This document shows, in pieces, positions 32,707 to 62,824 of a stretch of 64,000 bases of DNA. Source of the stretch: Candidatus Multivoradales bacterium. GTDB taxonomy: Bacteria; Acidobacteriota; Thermoanaerobaculia; Multivoradales; JAHEKO01. Under the pieces are notes generated by a model. The model saw only the letters and a program-made list of their open reading frames with translations, had not been told where the DNA came from and searched no databases. The stretch is taken from the NCBI GenBank assembly GCA_965223855.1, contig CBDCXM010000008.1, forward strand, positions 640,001 through 704,000. The letters run 5' to 3'. The stretch's first letter is position 1; each line of letters starts with the position of its first letter. The translations under genes and the position numbers were made by a program.

Positions 32707-32736
32707 CGAGCTAGTGACGGTCGTCCTCGCGCGTTC
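32707..32736 (+). promoter_or_regulatory. Putative ECF promoter YGAG-N19-CGCGTHC
   Basis: CGAGCT-agtgacggtcgtcctcg(17)-CGCGTTC, ~65 nt upstream of serine hydrolase ATG. Confidence 0.65.
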
Positions 32737-32798
32737 TTCCGAGACCGTGGGTGCCAACTCACCCACGGTCGGCACCACGAAACGAGAGAGGAAAGGCG

Positions 32799-34307
32799 AT
32801 GAAAAAACGACGAACCGAGGCCGGAAGACTCATCGCAGCGACATGCCTGCTGCTCGTTCACGGCCTCCACGCTTCACCGCCGAAGTCGGCGACCCTGGAA
32901 TCGGAATCGTCGGGGACAGACTTCGAGGCTCCCATCGAGACCAGAGAGCAGGAACTGGGTAGCAACTTTGTCCAGATCGTCAACGACGCAGGGGCCAAGG
33001 GCGAGCAGATGGAGCTGCTGCGTGACACCTTCGACGCCGCCCTCCTGGAAGACGACTCCTTGGACCGGCTCAGGCAGGCCCTGACCTACATGCACGAGGA
33101 GTTCGCGCCCCTGAAGTTCCAGAATGCCGAGCTGGTCGAATGGAAGACTCCTTCTGGCGTCCAGAGAAAGCTTCACACGTTCGCGCTCGATGAGCGGAGG
33201 AAACAGTGGAAGAACATTCAAATGGACGTCAGCGACGAGGCCATCCCTCGGATCACCGGCATCAGCTTCGTCGCCGACGTGTCAGAGCCGGTCTACCTAC
33301 CCGCCGGTGACATCCGGCATGAGATCGAGTGGTTGGACACCTACGTGAACAAGCTGATTCGCGAGGACGACCTTTTCGGCAGCCTTGTCATCGTCGAAGA
33401 GGGGAAGGTGCTCTACGAGCGCTACTTCGGCTTCGAGGATGCTCGCCGTAGCCGCCCTATCAGCGAGGCCACGCGTTTCAACATGGCTTCTGGAGGGAAG
33501 ATGTTTGCAGGCGTGGCGATCGCTCAGCTTGTCGAGGAAGGCAAGCTGGAGTGGAGTGCTTCGGTCAGTCGATACATTCCGGGCGTCGCGGAGGATCTCC
33601 AAGTACGCCATCTGCTCAATCACTCCGCCGGTATCTCGAACTACTGGACGGAGGAGAATGAACAGCGAATGGCCTCTGCGACAGACCCTCAGCAGGAGTT
33701 TCTGGAACTCGCACTCGAAGCCGGAACAGACTTCGAACCCGGAACAGCAGTCCGCTACTCGAACTCGAACTTCATTCTGGCAGGCCATGTGGTCGAGGCA
33801 GCCAGCGGCCGAGACTACTTCGACTACGTCCGCTCGGAGATCCTGGAACCCTCGGGCATGACGCACACACTCCTCTCAGTCGAGGATGACTTCTCGCGAG
33901 ACGTTGCCGAGGCCCTGCGGGGGGAGCCGTTCAAGTGGGAGCGAATCGACTTCAATCCCCGGCCAACGTCTGCAGGTGGCTCGTACACAACGGGCCGAGA
34001 CATGGTCAGATTCTCTCAGGCGCTGACCAACGGCGCCCTCCTCTCGGGAGAAATGCTCGACGTCATTTCAACGAGCACGCTGGCCGGCGTGCCCGACGCC
34101 CTGGACGACTTCGGATACGGCTTTCAGCTCAGTACTCAGGGGCAAACCGACTTCTTCGGCCACGGCGGGCTCGCTCGTGGAGTCAACTTCGGCTTCGAGA
34201 TTGTCAGGGCCAGGGATCTCACGCTGGTCATGTTCTCGAACCAGGACAACGGAGCCTTCGACGATCTCAAGAAGAATGTCATGAAACTCATCTCCGGCTT
34301 CCGCTGA
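32799..34307 (+). CDS. Secreted serine hydrolase (beta-lactamase class C/PBP-like)
   Basis: Signal peptide; SGGK, LLNHSAG, YSN and HGG motifs. Confidence 0.88.
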   Translation: MKKRRTEAGRLIAATCLLLVHGLHASPPKSATLESESSGTDFEAPIETREQELGSNFVQIVNDAGAKGEQMELLRDTFDAALLEDDSLDRLRQALTYMHEEFAPLKFQNAELVEWKTPSGVQRKLHTFALDERRKQWKNIQMDVSDEAIPRITGISFVADVSEPVYLPAGDIRHEIEWLDTYVNKLIREDDLFGSLVIVEEGKVLYERYFGFEDARRSRPISEATRFNMASGGKMFAGVAIAQLVEEGKLEWSASVSRYIPGVAEDLQVRHLLNHSAGISNYWTEENEQRMASATDPQQEFLELALEAGTDFEPGTAVRYSNSNFILAGHVVEAASGRDYFDYVRSEILEPSGMTHTLLSVEDDFSRDVAEALRGEPFKWERIDFNPRPTSAGGSYTTGRDMVRFSQALTNGALLSGEMLDVISTSTLAGVPDALDDFGYGFQLSTQGQTDFFGHGGLARGVNFGFEIVRARDLTLVMFSNQDNGAFDDLKKNVMKLISGFR

Positions 34308-34410
34308 TAGCTGCCCTACGCGACTTTAGAGGCGCGGAGACAGCTCAACCTCTCGAAGTCTCGGATCGACGGACAACAAGCTCAGCGCTTCGGCAGGTGG
34401 TGTGAGCAGG

Positions 34411-35839
34411 TCAGAAGGGCTGAGAGCAGAGTGCCTTTGGCCTTCGAATCCCGCAGGTGGTCAACGGCACATGCTCGTAGGCAAGGATCGCCTCGAGAGC
34501 AGGGTCGCGATTGTGTTTGTAGTCAGAGAAGCTCAGGGGCGTCAACAAGTCGGGCGTCGTTGCGTCCCGGTCTTCGAACGGCTCGGGTAGAGAGTTCTGC
34601 CAGTACATGGTCGATGTGTGCACCGCCAGCCGGCTATGAGGCAATCGTGACCCCCGATTGTCAGCAAAGTGGTTCGGACTACCGCCCGTCTGCTCACCAA
34701 CGAAAACGGCGTTCGTCCAGGTCTCGAGGAGGGTGACGAGATGACTGCCCGCCGAGAACGTCCGGCGACCGATGATCACGAAAAGTCTCCCCGGCCGATC
34801 CAGGAGGGGGTCTGAGAGGATGCCCCGAACGAGATCCTTGTTCAGAGTGTTGTCGCCGCCTCCGTGTAGCCTGAGGTCGATGACCAATCGAGCGTCGAGA
34901 CGATCGACGTCTCGAAGGACTCTGGCGAAGAAATTGCTCATGGACTCTCGCTCGTGATTCTCGTTTCGAGTGATCTGGGTGTAGACAATGTTGGAGTCCT
35001 CGAGATACGCCGACCAATAGTGCTTCGGCGCCTTGCGAAACCAGAGGCTCGGCGGGTGCCTGAGCCATAGCGGTGCTGGGGCATTCTCGTCCCTCGCGGT
35101 GAGGAAGCCGACTGCGGTTGCTGCAAGCTCGTGGTCGAAACGGAGATCTGCCATGCTCGGGAGAGCCTCCGTTGCCACAGACTGGAAACGAACGTCTGTC
35201 GACACTGCCCCAGCCGGACCGGCGAGAGTCAACGTAGCTTCGTCGGAACGTGCTGTGATCCCGAGAGCAAACAGCACCTCAGCTGTGGTCATCAGACGAG
35301 GGACGGTATCGAGCAAGGTCGCAGCGTTGTCCCTCGGAGCGATCTCACTCACACGGCGGAAGACCTCCTCGACGTCAGTCCCATCGATCTCGAGAACTCG
35401 TCTGCCGAGCGCCTCCGCCTGCTCCCGGGCCACTCCGATCACGTACCAACCATCAGAGAACCGATAGATCGCTACAGGGAAGCGGCTGAACCCAGTGTGT
35501 CCGTTGACGATCCCGGGATAGAGCCAGAGCGCGGTGTGGCCGTCGCCAAGAAGCGCCATGAGGCGGGCCAGCTCCACGACCACTTCGTTATCCGAGAGGG
35601 AGGGAATCCTCCGGTCCAAGTCCCTCACCGCATCGTCGAAATCCTCCTCGGTGATCGTGTGGAACGGGTCGATGTGCCGCTCCAGGACCTTCTCACGCAG
35701 AGGCTGCCAGGTCCTCCCGCCACTGATCGGGCGAAAGCCGAATCTGGCCGCAAAGCGAACCGGGAAAAATCGAAAGAAGCACGGCGGCAACCAGGATCGG
35801 GCCTGTCCGCAGCCTCAGCAAACTCAACGGTGTTGGCAT
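34411..35839 (-). CDS. Secreted S41-like peptidase with one frameshift near 35700
   Basis: RBS GAGGAG + ATG 35839, signal peptide …QWREDLAA joined out of frame to LREKV…LGDGHT; IDLRLHGGG, TFSAG and GEQTGG motifs. Confidence 0.75.
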
Positions 35840-35904: not shown

Positions 35905-35934
35905 GAACGCGGACCCAACAGGTGGAAGTGCTCA
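35905..35934 (-). promoter_or_regulatory. Putative ECF promoter
   Basis: TGAGCA-cttccacctgttgggtc(17)-CGCGTTC, ~68 nt upstream of S41 peptidase. Confidence 0.65.
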
Positions 35935-36127: not shown

Positions 36128-37270
36128 CTACTTGCCAAGTACATCGAGAACGTCTCGCGCCACTACCGCGCTCCATGCGCGTCCATCGTGCTCCGCAGCG
36201 TTGGAAAGCACGATCACCACATCGCCATCCGCGTGGACCAGGAACGCACTGTTGTGGCCTAGCCAGCCGTCGTCTCCGTTGTGACGTAGTGAGAGCACTC
36301 GGTTCTCGGTGTCGGTGGCGATGCCCAGACCGTAGCCGTACCAGAGACCTCCATCCGCCCTTTGACGCACCCTCGTTCGGGGCCTCTGGATGACTCCCAG
36401 CGGGTCGTCGCTTTCGGCGCTCAGTAGCGCGAGAGCCCACGCAAACAGGTCGGCCGTCGAGGAGTACAGCCCCGTTGCACCGCGATACCCCCAGTTCGCA
36501 CGACTCTTCCCATCTCCGTAGATCGTCCGCCGAACTCTCGGTGCTCGCGGCGACTTGATCGGCGCTATCGATCCGGCCGTCTCGTGCCCCCAGAGTCCGG
36601 TGGCGTCGAGAGATCTGGGCGAGAGCACCTTGCGGACGAGCAACTCATCAAAGCTGGTCCCGGTTGCTTCCTCGATCGCGATCGCAAGAAGGTTGTAGCC
36701 GTCGTTGGAGTACCGATATTCCTGTCCAGGTTCGGCTCGCAGCCTTCGCTTCAGGATCGCGCGCGCAGCTTCCGTCCGACTGGTCAAGCCATCGGCTGCA
36801 TAGTTGTGACCGAGACCCGACGTGTGCGTCAAGAGCTGCTCGATCGTGATGCCTCTCTTTTTCGCCGGAACCTCCTGGAGGTACTCGGCGATCGTGCCTC
36901 CGAGATCCAATGCACCCTCTGCAGCAAGGGTGGCGGCCAGAGCTGCCGAAAACTGCTTCGAGGTCGAGCCGATCCAGTACCTCCGCTCTTTCTGGCCCTG
37001 CGGCAAGGGTACGTCTCCAACGGTCTCCTGCAGGATGATCGCGCCTGCCCTCGCAACGAGTACGTCGCCTCTGAAGCCCTCGCTCGCTCTCACACCGAGT
37101 ACCACGTTCAGGGCTCCTTCCAGGTTCGGCTCGGAGGGCAGAGGGCTCGCCTGCGCCCGGGACAGGGAGCCGTGGAGTTCCCCCACCAAGAGAAGTGCCG
37201 CAACGCCGACCAGCGGCAATGCGAGCGAAGGTCTCCACAGCCCAATCCGTCCTTTGTTGTCTCTCTTCAT
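36128..37270 (-). CDS. Secreted serine hydrolase (beta-lactamase family)
   Basis: Signal/TM segment; STSK, LLTHTSG, YSN and HNG motifs. Confidence 0.85.
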   Translation of the reverse strand: MKRDNKGRIGLWRPSLALPLVGVAALLLVGELHGSLSRAQASPLPSEPNLEGALNVVLGVRASEGFRGDVLVARAGAIILQETVGDVPLPQGQKERRYWIGSTSKQFSAALAATLAAEGALDLGGTIAEYLQEVPAKKRGITIEQLLTHTSGLGHNYAADGLTSRTEAARAILKRRLRAEPGQEYRYSNDGYNLLAIAIEEATGTSFDELLVRKVLSPRSLDATGLWGHETAGSIAPIKSPRAPRVRRTIYGDGKSRANWGYRGATGLYSSTADLFAWALALLSAESDDPLGVIQRPRTRVRQRADGGLWYGYGLGIATDTENRVLSLRHNGDDGWLGHNSAFLVHADGDVVIVLSNAAEHDGRAWSAVVARDVLDVLGK

Positions 37271-37408
37271 CCATGACTCCGTCAAGGTTCGCTCTGTCTC
37301 TCTGACTCGCCCCGGAGCCATCTATTCCGGAAACGGGTCTTCGTCTGGTGTCCACCTGGGTCCAATCGCGTAACAACTTGAGCGGTCTTCAAGCTGTCGC
37401 ATCACTAG

Positions 37409-37438
37409 GAACGCGCGGCGTGTCGGGAGGGATGCTCG
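37409..37438 (-). promoter_or_regulatory. Putative ECF promoter
   Basis: CGAGCA-tccctcccgacacgccg(17)-CGCGTTC upstream of serine hydrolase. Confidence 0.6.
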
Positions 37439-40623: not shown

Positions 40624-41631
40624 TCACCTTTCCCGGCCAGAGGCGGCCAGATCCTCGGAGATCGGGAGCCCTTCGCCTGAACGCGAGGCCAACGACCTGC
40701 GATCGCGATAGAGAAGCTCTTCCAAGTAGAGGCGGTGACGGTTCATCATGTCCCCGAGGATGCCGATCTGCGCCACGCCTAGCGCGCAAAGAGCGGCCAG
40801 GCCCGAGAAGGCGCCCAACCACTTGTGGGGGCTGAATGAGCCGGTGTTGACGTAGTGGAGCAGCAGGACCGACCCCGCGAAAAGACTCACACCGGCGAGA
40901 ATTGCGGAGAGTCCCAGAAAGAACTTGAGGGGGCGGTAGTCCCGATAGCTTCGGAGGATGATCCTGAGCGTCTGACTGGCGTAGTTGGTAAGACTCCTCG
41001 CTACGCGACTCCGGCCGTATTCGCGCTGACCGCGAATCGGGATCGCGATCTCGATCATTCGCAGCCTTTGAGCGCTCAAGCAAAGAATCGCCTCCTGGGT
41101 ATAGGTGAACTCGCCGAGCAGGTACAACCGCCAGAGGGCTTGCGGCCCGTAGCACCTCATGCCGCAGGAGACGTCGAACATCCTCTGTCCGATGATCTGC
41201 GAGACCAGCCAGCTCATCACCCTGTTCCCCAGGCGCTTCGTCCAAGGCACCTCCGAGGCAGAGGATGGTGGCTTGAAGCGAGAAGCGGTGGCGAAGTCGG
41301 CTCTGCCGGTCAACACCGGCTTGACCAGCCGAGGCAGATGCGATGGATCGAACTGTCCATCGCCGTCGAGCGTCACCAGGACATCGGTGCCGCTGTCCAC
41401 CGCAAAGCGCAGGGCGGTGTGGAAAGCACCTCCGACACCCGTCGTCCTGCTGTGCGAGATGACCGTTGCGCCGGCGCTTCGCGCAACGTCGGCGGTGTCA
41501 TCGGTGCTGCCGTCGTCAACGACCACAACCTCGGCAACCGGAACGCCCAAGATCTTCCTGGGCAGCGAGCTGATGACCTCCCCGATTGTGCGTTGCTCGT
41601 TCAACGCAGGAATCGCCGCTATTAGGCGCAT
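40624..41631 (-). CDS. GT2 glycosyltransferase (polyprenol-phosphate sugar synthase-like)
   Basis: IPALNE, VVDDGSTD, LDGDGQF motifs; two C-terminal TMs. Confidence 0.88.
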   Translation of the reverse strand: MRLIAAIPALNEQRTIGEVISSLPRKILGVPVAEVVVVDDGSTDDTADVARSAGATVISHSRTTGVGGAFHTALRFAVDSGTDVLVTLDGDGQFDPSHLPRLVKPVLTGRADFATASRFKPPSSASEVPWTKRLGNRVMSWLVSQIIGQRMFDVSCGMRCYGPQALWRLYLLGEFTYTQEAILCLSAQRLRMIEIAIPIRGQREYGRSRVARSLTNYASQTLRIILRSYRDYRPLKFFLGLSAILAGVSLFAGSVLLLHYVNTGSFSPHKWLGAFSGLAALCALGVAQIGILGDMMNRHRLYLEELLYRDRRSLASRSGEGLPISEDLAASGRER

Positions 41632-41878
41632 GAAACCTCCAGCCCTGCGGGGCTGCTGGGTCCCGGGGTGCGAGAGCCGAAAGCGCACCCCCGAAACTCC
41701 GGGCACTGCCAAAGTTCCTGCATCGCCACCCTATGGAGGCCGCGCAAAGCGGGTCGGTTGAATCTCAGCGCCCCGTGGGACCCGCAGACTCGAACAGATG
41801 CTGAGCCGGTCGGCACGGCAAAACCGCGACCTTCCGTGAGAGCAGCGCAGACGTCTAGCGCCAGACAATCGAAATGCC

Positions 41879-42835
41879 GTGGTAGGACGACGTCCCAACT
41901 TCTTTCTGGTCGGCGCGATCAAGTCCGGGACGACCTCGATGCACCGATTCCTGGGCCGGCACCCCGACATCTACATGTCACCCCGGAAGGAACCCACCTT
42001 CTTCGGCTCGGACCTCAGCGCCCGAGGGTTCGTTCGAGACGAAAGAGAGTACCTTCGTCTGTTCGAAGGAGCGACTTGCGAGAAGGTGGTCGGCGAGGCG
42101 TCCCCCTGGTACCTGTTCTCACGGCGAGCAGCCTACGAGATTCGGCAGTTCGAGCCGGCCGCCAGGATCCTGATCCTGCTGCGGAACCCCGTCGACGTCA
42201 TGTACGCCGCTCACGGTCAGCAGGTCTACAACCTCAACGAGCCGCTAGCCTGCTTCAGAGCAGCGCTAGCCGCCGAGCGCACGCGGAAGGCCCTACTTGG
42301 CTCTCCTTCCGACAGCAGCTACCTCCCCGAGGGGCTGCTGTACCGCGAGGTTGTTCACTTCTCCGAGCAAGTAGCTCGCTACTTCGATGCATTCTCGAGG
42401 AGCCAGGTCTTGGTCGTCCGCTTCGACGAAGTCGTCAGCACCCCGGAGCCGACTCTCCGCAGGGTTCTGCGTTTCCTCGACGTGGACTCGCAACATGCTC
42501 GAACGAGCTTTCCGGTCGCGAACGCTCGCAAGCGACTGAGGAGCCCGTGGCTTCAACGCCAGTTGAACAACCCTCCGCCCGGGTTGGCCAGCACCCTCAG
42601 ACAACTGCTCAGCCGACGCCTGAGAAGAGGACTCGCCGGCCTGCTGAGATGGCTGAACACTCGAGCCGGTCGTCCGCCTCTGGAAACTCCTACCCGACAC
42701 GAACTGCTTCGAGAGTTCTCTGCCGAGATCGACAGACTCGCATCGCTGACCGGCATAGATCTTGGAGATTGGGGCCATGAGTCCATGCACCGCCCCTCGA
42801 CAGGCTCCGCGGGACGCGGAACGGGTTCGGTTTGA
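41879..42835 (+). CDS. Sulfotransferase
   Basis: PNFFLVGAIKSGTTS (5'-PSB), KEPTFF, GEASPWY, LLRNPVD (3'-PB). Confidence 0.9.
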   Translation: MVGRRPNFFLVGAIKSGTTSMHRFLGRHPDIYMSPRKEPTFFGSDLSARGFVRDEREYLRLFEGATCEKVVGEASPWYLFSRRAAYEIRQFEPAARILILLRNPVDVMYAAHGQQVYNLNEPLACFRAALAAERTRKALLGSPSDSSYLPEGLLYREVVHFSEQVARYFDAFSRSQVLVVRFDEVVSTPEPTLRRVLRFLDVDSQHARTSFPVANARKRLRSPWLQRQLNNPPPGLASTLRQLLSRRLRRGLAGLLRWLNTRAGRPPLETPTRHELLREFSAEIDRLASLTGIDLGDWGHESMHRPSTGSAGRGTGSV

Positions 42836-49768: not shown

Positions 49769-49798
49769 TGAGACCTCCAGGAGCAACGTTGCGCGTCC
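49769..49798 (+). promoter_or_regulatory. Putative ECF promoter
   Basis: TGAGAC-ctccaggagcaacgttg(17)-CGCGTCC upstream of metzincin lipoprotein/OMP pair. Confidence 0.62.
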
Positions 49799-50741: not shown

Positions 50742-50778
50742 CTTCAATCGACCTCCCCCCCACTCAGGAGAGACAACG

Positions 50779-51924: not shown

Positions 51925-52275
51925 ACAGGTGAATTACGGACCTCTCAACTATCGCTGAGTCGTAGGCTTCGCTTGCCCAGATCCGCTGGTCCGTCACAGT
52001 GCCGCCCATGTCCATCACAGAAAGTCCCCGCTTGATCTGGCAGGCCGAGCGATGCGATCGACCCGGGCTAGCGGTCAGACCCCCGCGACCTCAACCAGAC
52101 AGACCGCCGGCCAGCTGGGCCCCAACGACAGCAAGGCATCGTTTGAGGTAGCGAGAGCGCCCTCACAAGCCGGGAGGACCATTGGTGCGCGCAAGCTACC
52201 TCGCAGCGGCAGAGCTTCGAAGCAACCCCAGAGCAACATGCTAACAAGCAGGGACTCGACGCGGTCTTGGGGCCA

Positions 52276-52305
52276 TGAGCGCCCAGCCAGACTCCACCCG
52301 CGCCT
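52276..52305 (+). promoter_or_regulatory. Variant putative ECF promoter
   Basis: TGAGCG-cccagccagactccacc(17)-CGCGCCT, ~30 nt upstream of serine hydrolase. Confidence 0.45.
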
Positions 52306-52334
52306 GACAAGCCAAGAAAGAGGAACTTGAGGAC

Positions 52335-54017: not shown

Positions 54018-54039
54018 ATGTCGAGTCTCGAGGCGTTGT

Positions 54040-54410
54040 TCGTGTTCCGTCGAGACAGCCGCCGGAGCGGCGCTGGTCTTTGGCTTCCCTGGTGCATTCG
54101 ATGTTCATTGTCGAAATGCAGTGCTCGAGCACGAGAAGATTCCGGGATTGCAGGCAGCTCGGGGCGATAGCACGATCCGTTGTCGGTCAGCGAACCCTGG
54201 ATGTGGGCGCCGTGGCCTTCTCGAGCAAAGCCGCTGCGGTCTCGGTACGCGGTCGCGAACGGCTTCCACGTAGGCCGGGCATGACCGTCGCCGATGGCGA
54301 AGTGGACAAGCTCTCTGTCGGCGCCAAGTCCGGTGGCGTCCTCAGCGCCCCTTCCGACACTTTCCACCTCGAGACCAGGCACTCCAGGAGTGTCTCGCGT
54401 CGAGCCTGGC
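54040..54410 (-). mobile_element. Degenerate IS481-family (rve integrase) transposase remnant
   Basis: Frame-shifted fragments RELVHFAIGD, ETAAALLEKA, LTDNGSCYR and HFDNEHRMHQG resemble IS481 motifs FVHVAIDD, ETAAAFL, TDNGSCY and YNxxRPH. Confidence 0.6.
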
Positions 54411-54441
54411 AAGGGCGCCGGACGGATCCGTGGAGAACAGT

Positions 54442-54455
54442 CGTCAGGAGGCCCA
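54442..54455 (-). repeat. 14-bp element TGGGCCTCCTGACG downstream of peptide cassette A
   Basis: Identical to 59693-59706 downstream of cassette B, at a similar distance (~36-38 nt) from the last peptide stop. Confidence 0.7.
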
Positions 54456-54491
54456 ACACATGTTGAATCCCGGAGCTGTTGGCTCCGGCTA

Positions 54492-54542
54492 CTACTCGAA
54501 CCAGGGATTGCCGCCAGCGACCAGGTTGGTTCTCACCTTCAG
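54492..54542 (-). CDS. Small peptide P3 (M/L)KVRTNLVAGGNPWFE, CTG start
   Basis: RBS-like AAAGGGGGTG 7 nt before CTG, the same spacing as P2; homologous to the other four peptides; double TAG stop. Confidence 0.65.
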   Translation of the reverse strand: MKVRTNLVAGGNPWFE

Positions 54543-54622
54543 GGCTCATCACCCCCTTTCCGAAGCATTGGGTTGAGGATGTCTACGACCGGTTCCATGC
54601 TAGGAAGTGCTAGTTGCGGTCA

Positions 54623-54673
54623 CTACTCGAACCACGGGTTCGCACCGACGACGACTTGGGTTCTCGCCTTCAC
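54623..54673 (-). CDS. Small peptide P2 MKARTQVVVGANPWFE
   Basis: RBS AAGGAAGGGGGTG + GTG start; paralog of P3 and P5. Confidence 0.78.
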   Translation of the reverse strand: MKARTQVVVGANPWFE

Positions 54674-54773
54674 AGCGCACCACCCCCTTCCTTGGGTAGT
54701 TGAGAGGATTCTCGATCGCCACGCTGAGCTTCGCGTAATGCTGGTCTCTCCGAAAGCGCCGTGGAGCCTGACG

Positions 54774-54830
54774 CTACTCGAGGATGTGGGCTGTCGACTG
54801 ACCAGCCTTGACGTTGGTCTTGACCTTCAT
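54774..54830 (-). CDS. Small peptide P1 MKVKTNVKAGQSTAHILE
   Basis: RBS AAGGAGG + ATG; paralog of P4; ~60 nt downstream of conserved promoter. Confidence 0.82.
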   Translation of the reverse strand: MKVKTNVKAGQSTAHILE

Positions 54831-54889
54831 CGTCTGCCTCCTTGCAGAGTTGAGTGGGTACGCGATCGTTGGGCGCTCCTGACAATCAG

Positions 54890-54919
54890 GTACGCGGCGT
54901 CGACTCCCGGGTGGACTCA
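54890..54919 (-). promoter_or_regulatory. Putative ECF promoter of peptide cassette A
   Basis: TGAGTC-cacccgggagtcgacgc(17)-CGCGTAC. Confidence 0.7.
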
Positions 54920-55139
54920 CGGCGCAGCCCCCCGCCTCCTGCTCACCAAGGGGCACCTGCCACCGCCAGAGGAAACTCTTCGAAGTCGGCCCGCGTCGGC
55001 ATCCTTCGAGGCTGCCGGCGTGCCAATGGGGCCCTCCGCGACTGGCGCTCTCGAGCGGTCATCTCCACACTACCCGCCCTTGCTGGGCAAGAAGCTGCGG
55101 AGACAGCAAGCCTGCGAGCAAGACAACCGAGAAAGCGGA

Positions 55140-55766
55140 CTACTCGGTTCCGGGCGGCTCGTCCGCCAGCGCCGTCAGCAGCCAGGCCTTTGCAAGACGC
55201 CAACGCCTGAAGGCGGAGGATCGCGAAAGACCAAGAACCTCACCAGCCTCGGCAATGGACAGGCCCACAAAGTAGCGCAGTTCCACCAGTCGCGCCAGGA
55301 CCGGATCGTTCTCTGCGAGCCTTTCCAGCGCGCGATCGACGTCAACGAGAATCTCCGGCTCGTAGGCTTCCAAGGCCGCTGCCGCCTCCATCGGCACTCG
55401 GCGCCATCCGTCTCCCCTCTTGCGACACGCCCGCTTACGAGCGTGATCGACGAGGACTCGACGCATGATCATGGCGGCGACGGTGTAGAAGTGAGCGCGG
55501 TTGGTCCATCTCACCGACCGCTGCCGCGACAACCGGAGGTATGCCTCGTTGACGAGAGCGGTGGGGGCCAGGGTGTGGTCCACCCGCTCCGAGCGAAGCT
55601 GGGAGGCCGCTATCCGCCGCAGTCGCCCCACCACGAGACTGAAGAGGGCGTCACGGGCGTCGAGGCTTCCCGACCTCCAGAGGTTGAGAAGCTTGGTGAT
55701 GTCCTGGCCGGCCTCCACCGGCGGAGTCTCTAGGTCTGAAGCGAGACCTTGACTCGGATGCACCAT
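55140..55766 (-). CDS. ECF sigma factor, TIGR02999/ECF43-like kinase-activated type (start uncertain)
   Basis: DITKLL…LRRIA…HTLAPTALVNEAYLRL…RAHF…MRRVLVDHAR…VELRYFVGLS…WRLAKAWL. Confidence 0.9.
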   Translation of the reverse strand: MVHPSQGLASDLETPPVEAGQDITKLLNLWRSGSLDARDALFSLVVGRLRRIAASQLRSERVDHTLAPTALVNEAYLRLSRQRSVRWTNRAHFYTVAAMIMRRVLVDHARKRACRKRGDGWRRVPMEAAAALEAYEPEILVDVDRALERLAENDPVLARLVELRYFVGLSIAEAGEVLGLSRSSAFRRWRLAKAWLLTALADEPPGTE

Positions 55767-55875
55767 GACAAGAAAGCTAGTCGAGCCCGCTTGACCTGTC
55801 AACGAAGTGGACCGCCCTTGCCCGAGGGAACACTCGGTGGAGCACCGTCCCAAGACGCCGAAGATTCGGAGTGCC

Positions 55876-58800
55876 CTAGTCCGGCTCGAGATCCGAAAGC
55901 CTCGAATCGGCGACTCCTCGATCGAGAATCGCCCTAGCCAGAAGCCAGGCTTCGTCGCTCCTGCCCGCCCGCGCCAAAGCAAGAGCCCGAACGCGGTCAG
56001 CTTCAAGACCGGTGGCACCGCTGGTCTGCAGGAATCCGAGAGCAGATTCGGACCGACGCTCCGGGTCCGTCCATTCTGAATCGGGATCCTCCAGGTCGGT
56101 GGCCAGGATGTGGGCTGCCGCCAATTGAACCGCTAGCTCGATGGGCAAAGCTTCCACTTCCTGGCCCTCGATCACGGGGCGGAGTATTGCTGCTGCCTCC
56201 GCAGATCGACCAAGGCTCAAGTTCACTCGTGCCCAGTCGACCTTGCTCTGAACCACTTCGCCGTTGAGGTCCTCGAGAGCCGCGGATCGGATCTCCAGAG
56301 CTCTCCGCAAGAGCGGTTCAGCTTCACGACCGCGACCATCTGCGAGTCTTGCCATCCCACCCGTTCGGAGCGCATACGCCAGGTCCGGATGATCGGGTGC
56401 GGCCTTGGCCAGGACAACAGCAGCCTCTTCCGCCAGCTGTACAGCCTCCTTCCAGCGGCCTGACAAGAACTCAAGGTCTGCGATCGCTGCCCATGTCATG
56501 GCCGACCGCGGATGAGCGTGGCCGAGGAGGGAGATTCGGAGATCCAAGGCCTTCTCGAGGTTGGGGCGCGCCGCCTCGAGAAGACCCTCTTCCAGCTGAA
56601 GGGTGCCGAGGTTGTGGAGGGCAGAGGCGACTGATTCGCTTCCTACACCCAATGTGGTCTCATAAGTCCTGATCGCCCGCTGATAGAACTCGGTCGCTTC
56701 GGTGTGCCGACCCTGAAGATCGAGCAGCACGGCCAGGTTGTGAAGCTGATCCCCCAGCCGAGGGCTCTCGCCAACCTCTCTGTCGACGATCTCGAGAGAT
56801 CGCCTGAACAAGGGCTCCGCCCGATCGAGCTGACCTCGACTGGCGAAGACCTTCGCCAGATGATCGAGACCCACGGCAAGTTCGTAGCTGTCCTCGCCGA
56901 TCTTGGTTTCGAGAATCTCAACCGCTCGAGAGAGCTCTTGTTCTGCTGCACCGAACTCGCCAAGCAGCCTCAGTGACGTACCGAGTACGAGGCGCGCTCT
57001 GCCAACCAGCAGGTGGTCGTGCGGTAGGAGATCGACTCGAATCGAGACGCAGTCTTCAAAGAGGCCCTTGGCTTCCAGATACTCACCTCTTTGAACCTCG
57101 GTCTCGCCGAGCGCGAAGAGTGCATCCGCAAGTTCGAGGCTGTGTTCACCGGCAATCTGTCTTCTGGCCTCCAAGGCGCTCAGGTGCAACGCGTGGGCCT
57201 CGGCGAGGTTACCCTCTGCTGCTTCGACCCTTCCAAGGACCAACTGGAGGTCAGCGATCATGAGAGCTTCGTCGCTTCCGGACGCTTCCACCAACTGGAA
57301 GGAACGCTCGAGCTGCTCCCTGGCTTGGGCAAGGCGGCCCACGGTGCGGTCCAGCTCCGCCATCCATCGCAGCGCATCGACAAGCGCCCCTACAGAGCCG
57401 CGCTCCTCGAATGCGGCCACCGACCGGCTGAGGAAGCGTCGTGCTTCCTCGTATTCGCCCAGCCCCACGAAAGCTCGACCCAGGGCGAGCGACAGATCCG
57501 CAGCCAATTCCGCCGGCAGCTCGTCGAGTTGCGACTCGAGCTTCGATGCCCCGGCCTCTACGATCTCCTGGGCGCTCACGCCCTCTCCGAGTGGAGACAC
57601 CGGATCGGCCCGGGCGATCAGTGACACGACGTAGTCTGTCGAAGCCCGAGCACGCTTCGTCTGCGCGGCTGCCTCGTCGAGAGCCCGCGCCTTCCGCTGT
57701 ACTTCGAGGAGTAGCAGCGGGACGAAGAGCAGAACGGAGAGGGCAAGTCCGGCGACCAGCACCGAAGCGACGGGGTGGGCGCGCGCACTCCGCGAGACGA
57801 CGTAGATCAGCGAGCGACGGCGGGTGCGCAGAGGCAGACCGTTGAGGAATCTCGAGATGTCCGCGGCAAGCGCCTCCGCCGACGGGTAGCGCGCTCCAGG
57901 GGCCGGTTCTGTTGCCGCCAGCACGATGGTGTCGACGTCTCCCCTGAGCTGGCGAACGAGACGTCGTCGTCCTACCCCGCACTTCGGAAGGTCCACCGCA
58001 CTCTCGGAGGCAACGGAGTCGCTGGGTCGTGAGAGGCGGGCTTCGCCCGACCCTCGGTGCCCTCTGGCCTGCCCCGTGACCAGGTGATGTAGCAAGACAC
58101 CCAGGGAGAAGACATCGCTTGCTGTAGTTGAAGCTTCGCCTCTGAGCTGCTCTGGACTCGCATACTCCGGTGTCATCCGAGCTTCGCCCGTCTGCGTCGG
58201 CTCTACGTCGGGCTCGAGCCGCTTCGCGATGCCGAAATCGAGGAGCTTCGGACTCCCCTCGCGGGTGACGAGTACATTGCTCGGTTTGATATCGCGATGG
58301 ATTACCAGGTTCTGATGGCTGTGGTGGACAGCCCGACAGACAGGCTCGACGAGTCGTAGCCGCTCCTCGACAGTGAGGCCTTTCAACTCGCAGTAGTCAT
58401 CGATCGGTATGCCATCGACCAGTTCCATCACGAGATAGGGCCGGCCGTCGGAGAGTTCCCCGGCGGCCAACATCTTGGCGATGTGGGGGTGCTCGAGACG
58501 CCCGAGGATCTCCTGCTCGTCGAGGAAACGACGCCTGGCGCCCTCGGCCTCCAGCGGGAGGTCGAGAATCTTGATAGCTACCAGGCCATGCGCACCTCGG
58601 GCGGCGTAGACCACCCCCATGCCACCCCTGCCGATCTCACCTTCAACTTGGTAGCCCGCCACTTCGGTTGGGGCAGCCTTCGCCGTGGCCGCCTCTTCGG
58701 CCGAGCCCTCGAGCCACCCGACTGCTCTCTCCGCTGTGCTGACCAGAGCGCGAACTTCGGCGAGGAGCGCGACATCGTCAGCACACTGGTCAACCAGGAA

Positions 58801-58881
58801 CTCATCTCTCTCCGATGCCGGTAGGTCCAGCGCCGCCTGGAAAAGCTCCTCGAGCTGACGCCAACTGCTGTCGAGAGGCAC
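55876..58881 (-). CDS. Membrane Hanks-type Ser/Thr kinase with C-terminal TPR array
   Basis: GRGGMGVVY, VAIK, HRDIKPSN, DFG, TPEYASPE; TM HPVASVLVAGLALSVLLFV; ~10 TPR_10/12-type repeats. Confidence 0.92.
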   Translation of the reverse strand: MPLDSSWRQLEELFQAALDLPASERDEFLVDQCADDVALLAEVRALVSTAERAVGWLEGSAEEAATAKAAPTEVAGYQVEGEIGRGGMGVVYAARGAHGLVAIKILDLPLEAEGARRRFLDEQEILGRLEHPHIAKMLAAGELSDGRPYLVMELVDGIPIDDYCELKGLTVEERLRLVEPVCRAVHHSHQNLVIHRDIKPSNVLVTREGSPKLLDFGIAKRLEPDVEPTQTGEARMTPEYASPEQLRGEASTTASDVFSLGVLLHHLVTGQARGHRGSGEARLSRPSDSVASESAVDLPKCGVGRRRLVRQLRGDVDTIVLAATEPAPGARYPSAEALAADISRFLNGLPLRTRRRSLIYVVSRSARAHPVASVLVAGLALSVLLFVPLLLLEVQRKARALDEAAAQTKRARASTDYVVSLIARADPVSPLGEGVSAQEIVEAGASKLESQLDELPAELAADLSLALGRAFVGLGEYEEARRFLSRSVAAFEERGSVGALVDALRWMAELDRTVGRLAQAREQLERSFQLVEASGSDEALMIADLQLVLGRVEAAEGNLAEAHALHLSALEARRQIAGEHSLELADALFALGETEVQRGEYLEAKGLFEDCVSIRVDLLPHDHLLVGRARLVLGTSLRLLGEFGAAEQELSRAVEILETKIGEDSYELAVGLDHLAKVFASRGQLDRAEPLFRRSLEIVDREVGESPRLGDQLHNLAVLLDLQGRHTEATEFYQRAIRTYETTLGVGSESVASALHNLGTLQLEEGLLEAARPNLEKALDLRISLLGHAHPRSAMTWAAIADLEFLSGRWKEAVQLAEEAAVVLAKAAPDHPDLAYALRTGGMARLADGRGREAEPLLRRALEIRSAALEDLNGEVVQSKVDWARVNLSLGRSAEAAAILRPVIEGQEVEALPIELAVQLAAAHILATDLEDPDSEWTDPERRSESALGFLQTSGATGLEADRVRALALARAGRSDEAWLLARAILDRGVADSRLSDLEPD

Positions 58882-59369
58882 GAACTAGCTCCCGCCCGTT
58901 GAGGATCTGGTGCCGACACACAGGGACGGGTGGAAGACTCGCAGCCTCACCTGCTTCACACGCAGGAGGACGGCGACCGCAGGATCGGGTACCGAAAGAT
59001 CAGCCCAGGGGCGTTTCTCGGACATCAGTTTCGATCCGGTCATGGCCATAATGCTGGTTCTGAACGCGGAGCCGGGGCCATCAACTGTACCCCCTCCAAT
59101 CGTTCTCCCTACTCCAGTAAGCGCGAAGTGGGGAGTTTCGGCTCGGCCTGCGACTGGGCTGGAGGTCTTCAGGCAGCAGAATGTGACGGAGCTGCGCCGT
59201 CCGCCTCATTTCGACCGGTTCTGCGTCCCTGGGCCGCCGCCTGGTGGCGGACACCCTCAAACTCCCGGGGACGGCCAGGCTGGCTCGACAGCGAGGCGAG
59301 GCTCCTGGCCGCTCGAAGTCGGGTTCTTCTACCCGATGATCAGCTGCGCAGGGCTAGCCCCTTCTGTCA

Positions 59370-59399
59370 CGAGTCATCCGCAGCCTCGAGGCCGCGTCC
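59370..59399 (+). promoter_or_regulatory. Putative ECF promoter of peptide cassette B
   Basis: CGAGTC-atccgcagcctcgaggc(17)-CGCGTCC; downstream leader similar to cassette A (TGTC.GGAG.GCCCA). Confidence 0.7.
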
Positions 59400-59458
59400 T
59401 TGGTGTCGGGAGTGCCCAGCCCTCGATCTGAAGTTCTACCTGTGAAGGGAGGCCGTTA

Positions 59459-59515
59459 ATGAGAGTCAGAACCAACCTGCCGGCTGGCGAGTCCACAGTC
59501 GCCATCCTCGGCTAG
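59459..59515 (+). CDS. Small peptide P4 MRVRTNLPAGESTVAILG
   Basis: RBS AAGGGAGG + ATG; same length (18 aa) and position as P1. Confidence 0.78.
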   Translation: MRVRTNLPAGESTVAILG

Positions 59516-59603
59516 AACCAACGCCTCGGCGCTCTCGAGGTCGAGGCCTCGAAGAGAACTCAAACCCTCCCCAGCCCTCCATCCATAGAAAGGAGGTGAG
59601 ATC

Positions 59604-59654
59604 GTGAAGGCAAGAACCAACGTAGTCGCCGGCGCCAGTCCATGGCTTGAGTAG
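59604..59654 (+). CDS. Small peptide P5 MKARTNVVAGASPWLE
   Basis: RBS AAAGGAGGTGA + GTG; 16 aa like P2 and P3. Confidence 0.8.
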   Translation: MKARTNVVAGASPWLE

Positions 59655-59692
59655 GTGCCGGTCGAAACTCACTCCGGAGTGGATTGACGGGC

Positions 59693-59706
59693 TGGGCCTC
59701 CTGACG
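59693..59706 (+). repeat. 14-bp element TGGGCCTCCTGACG downstream of peptide cassette B
   Basis: Identical copy at 54442-54455 on the minus strand. Confidence 0.7.
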
Positions 59707-59890
59707 CGCGATCCAATTAGTCGCTGGAGCAGGTTCACGCGGCCCCCGGGGTCCCTCCCTAGTCCAGAGCCAAACACGGCCGCTCGTCGTGATCCTTCCT
59801 CAACTCCCAAGACAAGAAGAAGGGGGCTCGCGGGCAGTCGTCCGCAAGCCACGTCGCGGTTGGCGGCCCGGACGGGCAGAGCCCCTGACC

Positions 59891-59920
59891 TGAGTTCCTC
59901 CCAGTCTCTCTCGCGCGTCC
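59891..59920 (+). promoter_or_regulatory. Putative ECF promoter
   Basis: TGAGTT-cctcccagtctctctcg(17)-CGCGTCC, ~74 nt upstream of SMP-30 gene. Confidence 0.65.
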
Positions 59921-59991
59921 TCGATCGCATGCATTGCGCGCCAAACGGACGCTCGAATCGCCCAAGCAAGAGATACAGAAGGAGCTTTCCA

Positions 59992-60975
59992 ATGATCCTG
60001 CCAGCCAGGAAAGTCGCCAGTCTGGTCGCCGTAGCGGCCCTTGCAAGCATCACCAGTCTCGGTGCCGACTCTGAGCCGCGAGCCGAGACCGTCGTCCTCT
60101 TCGATCCTCAAGCGCTGGAAACGCCCGAGAGCATCGTCTTCGACAGCCTGGACAACGCCTACATCACACTCGCATTGACCGGCCAGGTAGTGAGAGTCTC
60201 CCAGGATGGTCGCCTGACCCTTGTCACCGAGCTGCCCATCGGGGCTCCCTGTGGTTCGGTACCGACCCTGGCTGCCGGGTTGGCCGTCGATGACAACGAT
60301 CGGCTTTTCGCAGCCGTCTCGGCATGCGACCCTGCGAACTCCGGCATCTGGGAGATCGATACCGGAACCGGCGAACACTGGCTGGTTGCCGTCGCCCCTT
60401 CCTCCGTCGCGATTCTCAACGGCCTGGACGTTCACGGCGACTATCTCTACGCCGCAGACTCCCTGGCAGGCCTCGTGTGGAGAGTGTCCACCTCGGGCGG
60501 TTCGTTCGAGGTCTGGGTAGACGACCCGCTCCTCAAGATCAGGCCGGGTTCGCCCTTTCCGGGTCCCAACGGGCTCCAGTACTACAGAGGTAGCGTCTAC
60601 GTGGCGAACTCGTCGACAGGCGCCATCGTGAGGCTTCCTATTGGGAATCACGGATCTTCGGGAGAAGCCACCGTTCACGTGTCGGCATTTCCTCTAGGCT
60701 GCGACGAGTTCACGTTCGATGTCCTGGGTCGCATCTACTGCGCCACCGGACCCTTCAACAAGGTGCTGCGCCTGACCCCGGGCGATGTCCCATCGACCGT
60801 TCTCGATGCCGGTGACCTGCTCGACGTCCCCACCTCGGTGGCTTTCGGACGACGCGGGCGGAACAAGAGGTTTCTCTACATCGCCAACGCCGCCTTCCCG
60901 TTCGCCACTCAGCAGTTTCGGCCCAGCCTGATGAGGCTGCCCGTGGACATCCCGGGGGATCCTCGGGAGTACTGA
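59992..60975 (+). CDS. Exported SMP-30/gluconolactonase/LRE beta-propeller protein
   Basis: RBS AAGGAG; signal peptide; TPESI, LNGL, GPNGL, GCDEF and PTSVAFG propeller motifs. Confidence 0.8.
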   Translation: MILPARKVASLVAVAALASITSLGADSEPRAETVVLFDPQALETPESIVFDSLDNAYITLALTGQVVRVSQDGRLTLVTELPIGAPCGSVPTLAAGLAVDDNDRLFAAVSACDPANSGIWEIDTGTGEHWLVAVAPSSVAILNGLDVHGDYLYAADSLAGLVWRVSTSGGSFEVWVDDPLLKIRPGSPFPGPNGLQYYRGSVYVANSSTGAIVRLPIGNHGSSGEATVHVSAFPLGCDEFTFDVLGRIYCATGPFNKVLRLTPGDVPSTVLDAGDLLDVPTSVAFGRRGRNKRFLYIANAAFPFATQQFRPSLMRLPVDIPGDPREY

Positions 60976-61070
60976 ATGTTCGATTCACTCGATCTTGGTC
61001 CGTCTGGGCCGTGTCGGAAGTCATGGCATCTCCCTTGGCTTCGCAGGCGGCCTGAAGAGTTCCGTCACTG

Positions 61071-62735
61071 ATGTCCATGCCGATCGGAAGGCCGGTCAAG
61101 TGTGTGGCAGCCGTCCTCGAGTCACTACGCCTGGCGTGCTCGCACCGCCAAGCGAGATCGGTACTCCTGGCTGCCTTGGTGCTTGTGGCAGCCCTCACCC
61201 TGCCAGCGAAGGCTCACCTCGCTCGTCGCCCCGGAGCAGAGGCGGAGGGCGCCTGCGTGAGCCGGGCGCTTCCGGGTGTGGCTCAGCCTGAGCAGGTAGC
61301 CACACCCTATCGAGTACCGTGTGAGTTGGCAGCTCCGCTGGATGGATCTCACCACTGCCTGAGGGTTCCCGTGGTGGAAGGGCCAGCCGGGCGGATCATC
61401 GACCTGTATGTATTGGTCCTCGAGGCTACGGGGTCTGCGCCCGAGCCCGACCCGATCTACTGGCTTGCGGGAGGCCCGGGACAGGGGGCAAGCGGCGCGG
61501 CCCCCTTTCTGGCCCAGGTCTTCTCGGGCCCTCGCATCGATCGGGATCTCGTCTTTGTCGACTACCGAGGAACCGGGCGGTCCGACCCTCTGACATGCCC
61601 ACCACTCGGGGATTCCGAGGATCCGAACACATGGATGCGAGAGTTCCTCTCACCCGAGCGCTACCGCTCCTGCCTCCCGGAGCTGATGAAGCGCGGAGTC
61701 GACCTTGGGCGCTACAACACCGCCATCATCGCGGGCGATCTGGAAGTGGTCCGCCGTTCGCTGGGCCACGAGCAGATCAACTTGGCCGGAGCCTCGTACG
61801 GCAGTCGGGTTGGTCTGGAGTACATCCGCAGGCATGGCGACAACGTTCGAGCCGCACTCCTCGAAGGCGTTGCGGCACGTTTCCAGGATCACCTGCTCAC
61901 ACAGGCCGAATTGCTCGAGCGTGGCATCGTCGGTATCAAGGCGCAGTGCCGGGACGACGCCGCTTGTCACGCCGCATTCCCCCACTTCGCCAGTGACATG
62001 GACTCTGTGCTTTCCCAACTGCGGACGGCTCCGATAGAGACGACGGTGGTGAGCGAGCAGACAGGACGGGAGCATCCCGTGACGCTCACCTACGAGAGCT
62101 TCGTCTATGCACTTCGGTTCTCGCTGTACTACTCCGGTCCTGCCGCAGACCTTCCGATGAACGTCACCGCGGCCGCGAACGGAGACTGGACGCGGTTCGC
62201 CGACATGGCGGTCAAGCTGGCGGCGGGCTTCGGCGCCGCCGCCACCGGCATGACGATGGCCGTCCGGTGCGCGGAGGTGGTGCCCTACACGAATGTGACC
62301 GAGGCGCGCCAGCACGCCGAGGGTACGGTCTTCGGCACTCTCCGCCTCGACCAAGAACTGGAAATCTGTCGGGACTGGCCGCGATCGGAAGTCCCTGCGG
62401 ATCTCCATCATCCAGTGGAGTCCGACGTGCAGGTCCTCATGCTCACCGGTGAGTGGGACATCACGTCTCCACCGGAAGATGGGCGGTACGCCGAGCGCTA
62501 TCTGCCGAACGGGAGATTCGTCGAGATGCCGCAGTCCAGGCATGATGGGACGCTTGATACCTGCATGGCACAGGTGCGCGACGCGTACTTCCGACGCGGC
62601 GACTGGCGCTCTATCGACCTCACCTGCCTGACCGAGGTGGGGTACCCACCGTTCAGGACCGCCGGGAGACGCACCTGCGGGCCCTCGGAACGTGCCTCGT
62701 GCGACGGTGAGCTCGCGGTCGAGGACGAGGATTGA
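61071..62735 (+). CDS. Exported alpha/beta hydrolase (tripeptidyl aminopeptidase/TAP-like, S33)
   Basis: LAGGPG, DYRGTGRS, GASYG nucleophile elbow, GEWDITSP, C-terminal His. Confidence 0.85.
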   Translation: MSMPIGRPVKCVAAVLESLRLACSHRQARSVLLAALVLVAALTLPAKAHLARRPGAEAEGACVSRALPGVAQPEQVATPYRVPCELAAPLDGSHHCLRVPVVEGPAGRIIDLYVLVLEATGSAPEPDPIYWLAGGPGQGASGAAPFLAQVFSGPRIDRDLVFVDYRGTGRSDPLTCPPLGDSEDPNTWMREFLSPERYRSCLPELMKRGVDLGRYNTAIIAGDLEVVRRSLGHEQINLAGASYGSRVGLEYIRRHGDNVRAALLEGVAARFQDHLLTQAELLERGIVGIKAQCRDDAACHAAFPHFASDMDSVLSQLRTAPIETTVVSEQTGREHPVTLTYESFVYALRFSLYYSGPAADLPMNVTAAANGDWTRFADMAVKLAAGFGAAATGMTMAVRCAEVVPYTNVTEARQHAEGTVFGTLRLDQELEICRDWPRSEVPADLHHPVESDVQVLMLTGEWDITSPPEDGRYAERYLPNGRFVEMPQSRHDGTLDTCMAQVRDAYFRRGDWRSIDLTCLTEVGYPPFRTAGRRTCGPSERASCDGELAVEDED

Positions 62736-62794
62736 TGGCTCTCATCGCTCGAGTGCGCAGTGCGGCGATGAACCGGACAACGCGGCAGGTCGGC

Positions 62795-62824
62795 TGAGTC
62801 AAGAGTCTGGGCGTTCTCGCGTTC
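62795..62824 (+). promoter_or_regulatory. Putative ECF promoter
   Basis: TGAGTC-aagagtctgggcgttct(17)-CGCGTTC upstream of HAF-repeat gene. Confidence 0.65.

Follow-up and report, generated by a model that had tools for sequence, protein, structure and literature searches.

The 64,000 nt window analysed here, positions 640,001 to 704,000 of contig CBDCXM010000008.1 (G000:C8:640001-704000, the contig being termed C8 below) in the 4.52 Mb, nine-contig assembly of a Candidatus Multivoradales bacterium, contains the start of a foreign-looking island of approximately 60 kb. Measured in 5 kb steps, the GC content falls from 0.68-0.70 to 0.61-0.64 between C8:670,000 and C8:730,000 and rises to 0.66-0.72 beyond, delimiting a low-GC block at C8:~670,000-730,100 (window positions 30,000 to ~90,100) that extends 26 kb past the end of the window, into loci L001 and L002. 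The island carries two pairs of genes for an extracytoplasmic function (ECF) sigma factor and a Ser/Thr kinase, sigma1-STK1 in the window and sigma2-STK2 beyond it, along with genes for secreted hydrolases, 18-aa peptides, a peptide exporter and glycosyltransferases. Dispersed between these genes are copies of a bipartite sequence, YGAG-N19-CGCGTHC, which is probably the promoter of one or both of the island's own sigma factors.

Two forms of this motif were scored: the strict form given above, and a relaxed form in which CGCG is not followed by T. The eight strict copies in the window, all of which had been listed in a first-pass annotation of the same DNA, compare with a mean of 1.03 (standard deviation 1.03, maximum 4) in 100 dinucleotide-preserving shuffles, none of which reached eight, and with approximately 0.5 per 64 kb predicted from the 36 copies in the whole genome; the excess over chance estimated in that annotation is thus borne out. 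Each of the eight is, again as annotated, intergenic and correctly oriented, being aimed at the start of an open reading frame (ORF) 59-126 nt downstream, where distances run from the last base of the motif to the start codon. Twelve of the 36 genomic copies fall within the island, the first and last (C8:672,707 and C8:730,025) marking both ends of the low-GC block. All 12 are intergenic, and 11 have a plausible ORF start on the same strand 59-260 nt downstream. Among the 24 copies outside the island, 20 lie within coding DNA, and only one of the four in intergenic DNA is followed, within 300 nt, by a gene starting on its strand. The 30 kb originally proposed as the extent of the regulon proves too short, since the field of motifs runs on to the equivalent of window position ~90,025, coinciding with the island. 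Genes were called with a model of codon usage, trained first on the genome as a whole and then again on the low-GC region, a crude procedure with which Pfam concurs wherever the two were compared.

The distance between the two halves of the motif is rigid. In island intergenic DNA, YGAG-Nx-CGCGT is found 12 times at N19, once each at N20 and N21, and at neither N17 nor N18. Equal frequency within coding sequences had been named in the first-pass annotation as a sign that the motif is not a promoter; in the island, the 14.1 kb of intergenic DNA contains the N19 form 12 times, and the 46,965 nt of coding DNA not once. Outside the island, its intergenic density (19 in 424 kb, or 0.045 per kb) is similar to that in coding sequence (124 in 4.04 Mb, or 0.031 per kb).

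Such a pattern might nevertheless be a post hoc construct, or the functionless remnant of a dispersed repeat, as the consensus was tuned during the first-pass annotation and was derived from the upstream regions of two peptide gene cassettes. Both of these sites exist, but the cassettes can be aligned through promoter, leader and ORF, meaning that they are duplicates and do not represent independent motif sites. However, the motif is recovered when it is not used as input. In an enumeration of every 4mer-N14..22-5mer dyad on both strands of the 29 island intergenic regions (14.1 kb), the top-ranked was CTGAG-N19-CGCG, which emerged as its reverse complement CGCG-N19-CTCAG and has 10 copies where the rest of the genome predicts 0.31; the second was TGAG-N19-CGCGT, with nine where 0.12 are predicted. 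Dinucleotide shuffling of these regions, repeated 60 times, gave a best dyad of 5-7 copies. No other dyad in the island intergenic DNA exceeded this range (the next best also having 5-7 copies), and the two sigma factors are not distinguishable by class of site. The CGCGT block is present in 12 of 12 strict sites by definition, being part of the search pattern; independent backing for a CGT-containing -10 element comes from its forming the 3' half of TGAG-N19-CGCGT in the unbiased ranking. When the T of CGCGT is dropped, 21 intergenic island sites are obtained, with the profile T(16/21)GAG-y-c ... CGCG-T(12)-Y-C(17)-T(14). The columns beyond the two blocks hold little information, mostly < 0.4 bit, hence these sites, the pair of peptide cassettes excepted, are not copies of a repeat. 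With clean spacing controls and replication in two independent external sets of sequences, described below, a pattern devoid of function is extremely unlikely; within the island, the motif is directional, rigidly spaced and strictly intergenic, which is to say promoter-like.

A genome-wide search, as the first-pass annotation had suggested, was also conducted using a position weight matrix (PWM) made from the island sites, which is circular for these training sites but informative for matches elsewhere. In the rest of the genome, matches to the matrix are nearly all inside genes, and copies of the pattern mostly so, indicating that the regulon is confined to the island.

The genes behind these sites (Table 1) encode mostly secreted proteins. 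One near-match noted previously, at 52276, is a genuine relaxed copy, whereas another, at 37477, was not counted, as it deviates twice, having TGAT instead of TGAG and one extra base in the spacer. The observation that glycan genes lack the motif was only partly right: one strict copy, beyond the window, precedes glycosyltransferase genes, and three relaxed copies in the window were also counted before glycan genes.

Table 1. Motif copies, regulators and peptide genes of the island. Positions are those of the window unless prefixed with a contig or locus; distances are counted from the end of the motif to the start codon.
Feature	Position	Strand	Context
Strict copy, CGAG-N19-CGCGTTC	32707..32736	+	62 nt to ATG of secreted beta-lactamase-fold serine hydrolase (32799-34307)
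Strict copy, TGAG-N19-CGCGTTC	35905..35934	-	65 nt to signal-peptide ORF leading, in another frame, into S41 peptidase ORF (34411-35790)
Strict copy	37409..37438	-	87 nt to ATG of second beta-lactamase-fold hydrolase (36128-37321)
Strict copy, TGAG-N19-CGCGTCC	49769..49798	+	91 nt to ATG of 283-aa ORF (49890-50741), no family found
Strict copy, TGAGTCC-N16-CGCGTAC	54890..54919	-	220 nt past sigma1 stop, same strand; 59 nt to peptide gene 1
Strict copy, CGAGTCA-N16-CGCGTCC	59370..59399	+	Divergent from STK1-sigma1 pair; 59 nt to peptide gene 2
Strict copy, TGAG-N19-CGCGTCC	59891..59920	+	71 nt to ATG of secreted SMP-30/gluconolactonase-like protein (59992-60975)
Strict copy, TGAGTCA-N16-CGCGTTC	62795..62824	+	Top PWM score (22.5); 126 nt to TTG of secreted HAF-repeat protein (62921 to past window end)
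Strict copy	C8:713486	+	No convincing ORF downstream
Strict copy	C8:713716	+	120 nt to 134-aa secreted Cys-rich protein
Strict copy	C8:724506	-	260 nt to HlyD, C39-peptidase ABC transporter, ABC transporter
Strict copy	C8:730025 (window-equivalent ~90,025)	-	215 nt to GT1 and GT2 glycosyltransferases
Relaxed copy, TGAG-N19-CGCGGCC	41738..41767	-	Weaker candidate; 106 nt to GT2 glycosyltransferase (40624-41631)
Relaxed copy, TGAG-N19-CGCGACC	41802..41831	+	Weaker candidate, PWM score 19.0; before ORF 41879-42835 (glycan gene, divergent from that behind 41767)
Relaxed copy, CGCG without T	47563	-	Counted among copies before glycan genes
Relaxed copy, TGAG-N19-CGCGCCT	52276..52305	+	29 or 71 nt to third beta-lactamase-fold hydrolase (52335/52377-54017)
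Relaxed copy	C8:714445	+	Before 145-aa paralogue of Cys-rich protein
Relaxed copy	C8:716626	-	Before 165-aa secreted protein
Relaxed copy	C8:718376	-	Before peptide gene 3, then CAAX/Rce1 protease
Peptide gene 1, 18-codon ORF MKVKTNVKAGQSTAHILE	54774..54830	-	GGAGG ribosome-binding site; behind promoter at 54919
Peptide gene 2, 18-codon ORF MRVRTNLPAGESTVAILG	59459..59515	+	Paralogue of peptide 1; GGAGG-type ribosome-binding site
Peptide gene 3, 18-codon ORF MKVKTKVKAGQSLMPILE	L001 ~14233-14289 (C8:~718233-718289)	-	GGAGG-type ribosome-binding site; relaxed motif copy
sigma1, ECF sigma factor	55140..55718	-	PF07638, 173.1 bits; TIGR02999, 194.8 bits (cut-off 126)
STK1, Hanks-type Ser/Thr kinase	55876..58881	-	Upstream of sigma1, same strand; kinase domain at residues 77-272
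sigma2	L002:667-1278 (C8:724667-725278)	+	Second PF07638/TIGR02999 sigma factor of island, outside window
STK2, 338 aa	L002:1250-2266, ending C8:726266	+	No hydrophobic segment, no tetratricopeptide repeats; soluble kinase
LysR-type regulator	C8:726252-727139		Adjoins STK2, converging on it

The two sigma factors of the island share 50% identity and are sisters on a tree of 202 sequences (SH-like support 98). They belong to a type, PF07638/TIGR02999, that is hugely expanded in Acidobacteriota and neighbouring groups; single genomes among the relatives have as many as 54 matches. In a family alignment of 16 relatives, the sigma2.2 stretch reads HTLQPTALVNEAYL, which corresponds to HTLAPTALVNEAYL in sigma1 and QGMEARDLVNESYL in sigma2. 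This part of sigma1, LAPTALVNEAY, has no acidic residues, and its Thr53 is at least 90% conserved in the alignment; sigma2 has EARD, thereby retaining an acidic ExxD, and has neither the conserved Thr nor the replacement of acidic residues by Ser or Thr. A profile alignment to PDB sequences set the 'pta' of sigma1 opposite the 'AED' of an ordinary ECF sigma factor, with the Thr facing the Glu, albeit with a weak score of 5.7 bits; a phmmer search of PDB with sigma1 yielded nothing at E values up to 0.01, and the profile gave weak ECF matches only. STK1 has a single hydrophobic segment (residues 367-396), a predicted membrane helix, followed by tetratricopeptide repeats (TPRs) at ~445-904. On the basis of hydropathy, its TPR region of ~600 aa is expected to be located outside the cytoplasm.

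These features recall the ECF43 group, which, in the available excerpts of the literature, is described as having a Sigma70_ECF domain and a sigma2.2 DAED patch replaced by Ser or Thr (STTA in EcfP, QTTA in the consensus), at which the protein is phosphorylated by a kinase (PMC7826278, PMC8999054, PMC13147305). The kinases have one membrane helix and extracytoplasmic TPRs, according to the excerpted supplement of PMC7826278, and EcfK of Xanthomonas citri is reported in the same excerpts to control a neighbouring cluster of genes, encoding a type VI secretion system (PMC8999054, PMC13147305, PMC7826278). Like EcfP-PknT of Vibrio parahaemolyticus and EcfK-PknS of X. citri, sigma1 possesses a Sigma70_ECF domain with a Thr motif, APTA, in place of DAED, and STK1 adjoins the sigma factor gene and has one helix and TPRs, as predicted. 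There are also differences. The STK1 gene is upstream of sigma1, rather than at the +1 position of ECF43 kinases; the sigma2-STK2 pair combines the acidic ExxD with a short, soluble kinase; and the nearest relatives of sigma1 are from Acidobacteriota, whereas ECF43 is proteobacterial as classified in the excerpts of PMC7826278.

Evidence linking the motif to such sigma factors came from other genomes. The first external set comprised 109 loci (1.27 Mb) around sigma factor paralogues from 60 relatives and the genome_contigs collection, and the second comprised 80 such loci (0.44 Mb) from the metagenome_contigs collection. In both, many of the loci are relatives of each other (Pyrinomonadaceae and Blastocatellia predominate, judging by the titles of the records), and hence the counts are not independent events. 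TGAG-N19-CGCGT was found 58 times in the first set, against 6-23 times at the other spacings from N12 to N25 (21, 11, 9, 20, 16, 13, 23, 58, 16, 20, 6, 17, 19 and 11 copies, in ascending order of spacer length). Forty-three of the 58 lie no more than 400 nt from the sigma factor gene, a zone accounting for 11.9% of the bases; 20 of these are divergent copies on the upstream side of the gene, while another 18 share its strand and come immediately after it, and three share its strand and precede it. The second set has 43 copies at N19, against 2-9 at spacings from N14 to N24, and 39 of them are within the same distance of the sigma factor gene, in 24 of the 80 loci, with 20 divergent and 18 downstream. 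When the external sites were pooled as 48-mers, 100 of the 101 were distinct, sharing the consensus gTGAGGGAnTy ... TnCGCGTtA around an uninformative spacer; as these sites had been selected on CGCGT, this block is not independent evidence there.

The copies, found in many soil bacteria, adopt a consistent layout around the relatives' sigma factors of 45-54% identity. The downstream copy precedes a gene for a kinase of ~1000 aa, and the divergent copy precedes a gene for a secreted protein of ~145 aa containing ...IPFAF...LPAGxYT.... The island is arranged similarly, with one copy following sigma1 on its own strand, another divergent from STK1-sigma1, and a third divergent from sigma2, 160 nt upstream of it. 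Presence of the motif is clustered on the tree of sigma factors, requiring 14 changes as opposed to 44.7 when labels were shuffled, and one Gemmatimonadaceae locus likewise carries it. In L038, L042, L047, L054, L055, L060, L062 and other loci, the gene for the ~145-aa protein begins ~20-140 nt after the divergent motif.

Binding sites of a regulator, too, can be intergenic and specific to an island, and the gene for a LysR-type protein next to STK2 provides a candidate; the motif might accordingly be an operator rather than a promoter. LysR boxes are T-N11-A dyads, however, while the present motif is asymmetric, always points towards the downstream gene and has blocks 19 nt apart without tolerance. 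In the relatives, moreover, it adjoins sigma factor genes, including at positions between these and the kinase genes, making an operator very unlikely. A different possibility is that this is a genuine ECF-type promoter read by a sigma factor encoded outside the island, whether a PF07638 paralogue or another ECF protein. The genome has nine strong matches to PF07638, only two of which are in the island, and there is no copy of the motif before either island sigma-kinase pair. Set against this, strict copies that are intergenic and correctly placed are confined to the island; the two island sigma factors have three and two instances of YGAG-N19-CGCGT within 5 kb, when all of the seven outside paralogues together have two (zero or one each, with one hit near two paralogues); and the motif directly adjoins the sigma factor gene in other genomes. 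An outside reader is consequently improbable.

The combination of a rigid spacer, directional intergenic sites and copies beside sigma factor paralogues elsewhere gives good support to the reading as an ECF promoter, and the proposal in the first-pass annotation that the motif is the target of the local ECF sigma factor or of a paralogue appears likely to be correct, as far as can be judged from sequence comparison. Several points count against recognition by the island's own sigma factors. Recognition by any of the seven remaining strong PF07638 paralogues is possible in principle. No PWM hit of at least 13 bits precedes STK1 or sigma2, so that neither sigma-kinase pair has a copy ahead of it and the usual argument from autoregulation is missing. 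No orthologue of sigma1 above 54% identity was found, the best being 54% among the 60 relatives (a tally that takes in the unpublished genome G005), 52% in genome_contigs and 54% in metagenome_contigs, with the nearest relatives being metagenome-assembled genomes of Acidobacteriota; there are consequently no orthologous intergenic regions to compare, and no locus for footprinting. The tree places both island sigma factors outside any supported clade flanked by the motif, and their nearest neighbours are three without it and one with it. The extension of the -35 element also differs, being GGGA in the relatives and Y/C in the island. The helix of sigma4.2 reads RRWRLAK in the island sigma factors as opposed to REWKxAK in the relatives, and the pairing of this difference with that in the -35 extension is suggestive only. 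The gene calls, furthermore, derive from a home-made codon model with only partial checking against Pfam. Among sequencing runs matching window positions 52000-61000, none was listed as RNA; four entries, all from a single study and of unstated kind, cover that stretch wholly or partly. Finally, the promoter predicted for ECF43 has 'GTC in -35, CAG in -10' (excerpted supplement of PMC7826278), of which just the GTC is matched, through the GAGTC present in three of 12 strict sites, while the -10 element here is CGCGT rather than CAG; for this reason, sigma1 is described as ECF43-like and not as a strict member of that group.

The general form of the motif has parallels elsewhere. In the excerpts of the PMC7826278 supplement, ECF41 and ECF42 promoters have TGTCACA or TGTCGAT in the -35 element and CGTC in the -10 element, and other groups of sigma factors have different motifs or none given. 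The island promoter resembles those of ECF41 and ECF42 in its long -35 element and the CGT within the -10 element, and is unlike them in the sequence of the former and the extension of the latter to CGCGT; their sigma factors also form another group, regulated by C-terminal extensions instead of kinases. The spacer of ECF41 promoters is 16 nt, and the motif of the wider family, when written as TGAGGGA-N16-CGCGT, has the same geometry. An analogy at the level of the island is offered by HrpL (ECF32), an ECF sigma factor encoded inside a horizontally acquired pathogenicity island, where the hrp box precedes many operons of the same island. HrpL is controlled transcriptionally and not via a kinase, the hrp box has a different sequence, and its island encodes a type III secretion system, in contrast to the secreted hydrolases, small peptides, peptide exporter and glycan genes found here.

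We infer that TGAG(Y)(C)-N17-CGCGT(Y)C comprises the -35 and -10 elements of a promoter for an ECF-type sigma factor carried by the island, read most likely by sigma1, by its sister sigma2, or by both. STK1 would sense an extracytoplasmic signal through its TPR region and phosphorylate sigma1 at Thr53, a residue that would stand in place of the acidic contact with core RNA polymerase made by ordinary ECF sigma factors. The sigma factor thus activated would initiate transcription a few bases past CGCGT, at the 12 strict and up to ~9 relaxed sites. The genes served would be mostly those of secreted proteins, namely the three beta-lactamase-fold hydrolases, the S41 peptidase, the SMP-30-like and HAF proteins and the small Cys-rich proteins, as well as the three 18-aa peptide genes, the HlyD/C39-ABC export operon and some glycosyltransferases. 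Taken together, promoter activity dependent on the island's sigma factors, activation of sigma1 via this phosphorylation and a start just beyond CGCGT are considered likely.

Bipartite ECF promoters and kinase-activated ECF sigma factors are already known. In the searchable literature, of which Iyer et al. 2020 on EcfP was not part, no paper was found to describe the motif consensus, its position beside PF07638 sigma-kinase pairs of the Acidobacteriota type, or an island-wide regulon with two such pairs. The same literature has almost nothing on the targets of the PF07638/TIGR02999 sigma factors of Acidobacteriota. The motif supplies a promoter consensus for which genomes can be scanned, with a fixed layout of one copy divergent from the sigma factor gene and one directly downstream, such that regulons may be predicted from sequence, and in one genome this consensus marks out a whole 60 kb accessory island. 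The island, which we take to have been horizontally acquired, hence exemplifies an element that brings with it both a sigma factor and a promoter code of its own.

The three peptide genes are among those with the best motif sites, and two of them flank STK1-sigma1. The third is situated between the ABC exporter genes and the CAAX/Rce1 protease gene; as read by eye, some of the changes separating copies 1 and 3 are synonymous. The exporter contains a C39 peptidase domain (PF03412), with QASAMDCG in its extended N-terminus and the catalytic QxxxxDCG intact. The island peptides have AG-Q or AG-E in place of GG, and their leader of 10 aa is short compared with a typical double-glycine leader. Sampling of 400 other genomes of the phylum revealed small ORFs with N-termini of the same type, MKVKxNVKAGG, in three (L196:1501-1683, + strand; L195:~1501, - strand; L194:~578, - strand), one of which has two tandem units (...KAGCAVWGGNHNETLVAQTKASG LKVKTNVKAGAAVWSGGGNHNETLVAQTKA). 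None of the three has TGAG-N19-CGCG nearby. These ORFs look like a family of leader peptides, the N-termini of those elsewhere ending in KAGG.

A more ambitious, and doubtful, interpretation is that the island encodes a self-contained peptide-signalling circuit of an undescribed kind, a positive loop similar to quorum sensing in which the signal passes via a Ser/Thr kinase to an ECF sigma factor. Cleavage of the 18-aa peptides (MKVKTNVKAG/QSTAHILE and its paralogues) after AG would accompany their export through the C39-ABC/HlyD system. Once outside, they would be detected by the TPR region of STK1, leading to the phosphorylation of sigma1. Sigma1 would in turn activate every TGAG-N19-CGCGT promoter, those ahead of the peptide and exporter genes among them, with kinase and sigma factor taking the place of a two-component system or RRNPP receptor. 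In its wider form, the same interpretation would have TGAGGGA-N16-CGCGT serve as a promoter code common to the kinase-linked ECF sigma factors of a large acidobacterial branch.

As regards how the island was acquired, no tRNA genes were detected in the window, L001 or L002, and no convincing repeats within either border region, the two borders not having been compared with each other. The protein encoded at the left flank has a best identity of 43% in genomes of the same genus, too divergent for synteny to serve as a test of insertion, and that at the right flank had no match in four of four genomes, an empty answer that is uninformative.

Some further features of the genes in the island merit description. 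The two small secreted Cys-rich proteins, of 134 aa (L001:9866-10270, + strand) and 145 aa (L001:10537-10974, + strand), are paralogues with ...CADPNHDDD...PHLCALPG... in common; neither matches Pfam or NCBIfam, and each is behind a copy of the motif. The S41 peptidase gene is seemingly split by a frameshift: a 48-aa signal-peptide ORF (MPTPLSLLRLRTGPILVAAVLL..., window ~35839-35693, - strand) comes to a stop, and the 459-aa S41 ORF takes over in a different frame. Programmed frameshifting, a pseudogene or an error in the sequence might each account for this. The island is also gene-poor, with 23% of C8:669,500-730,600 (window position 29,500 onward) being intergenic (14,135 of 61,100 nt), as opposed to 9.5% elsewhere (424,209 of 4,459,744 nt), and several gaps of 0.8-1.3 kb may contain further small genes.

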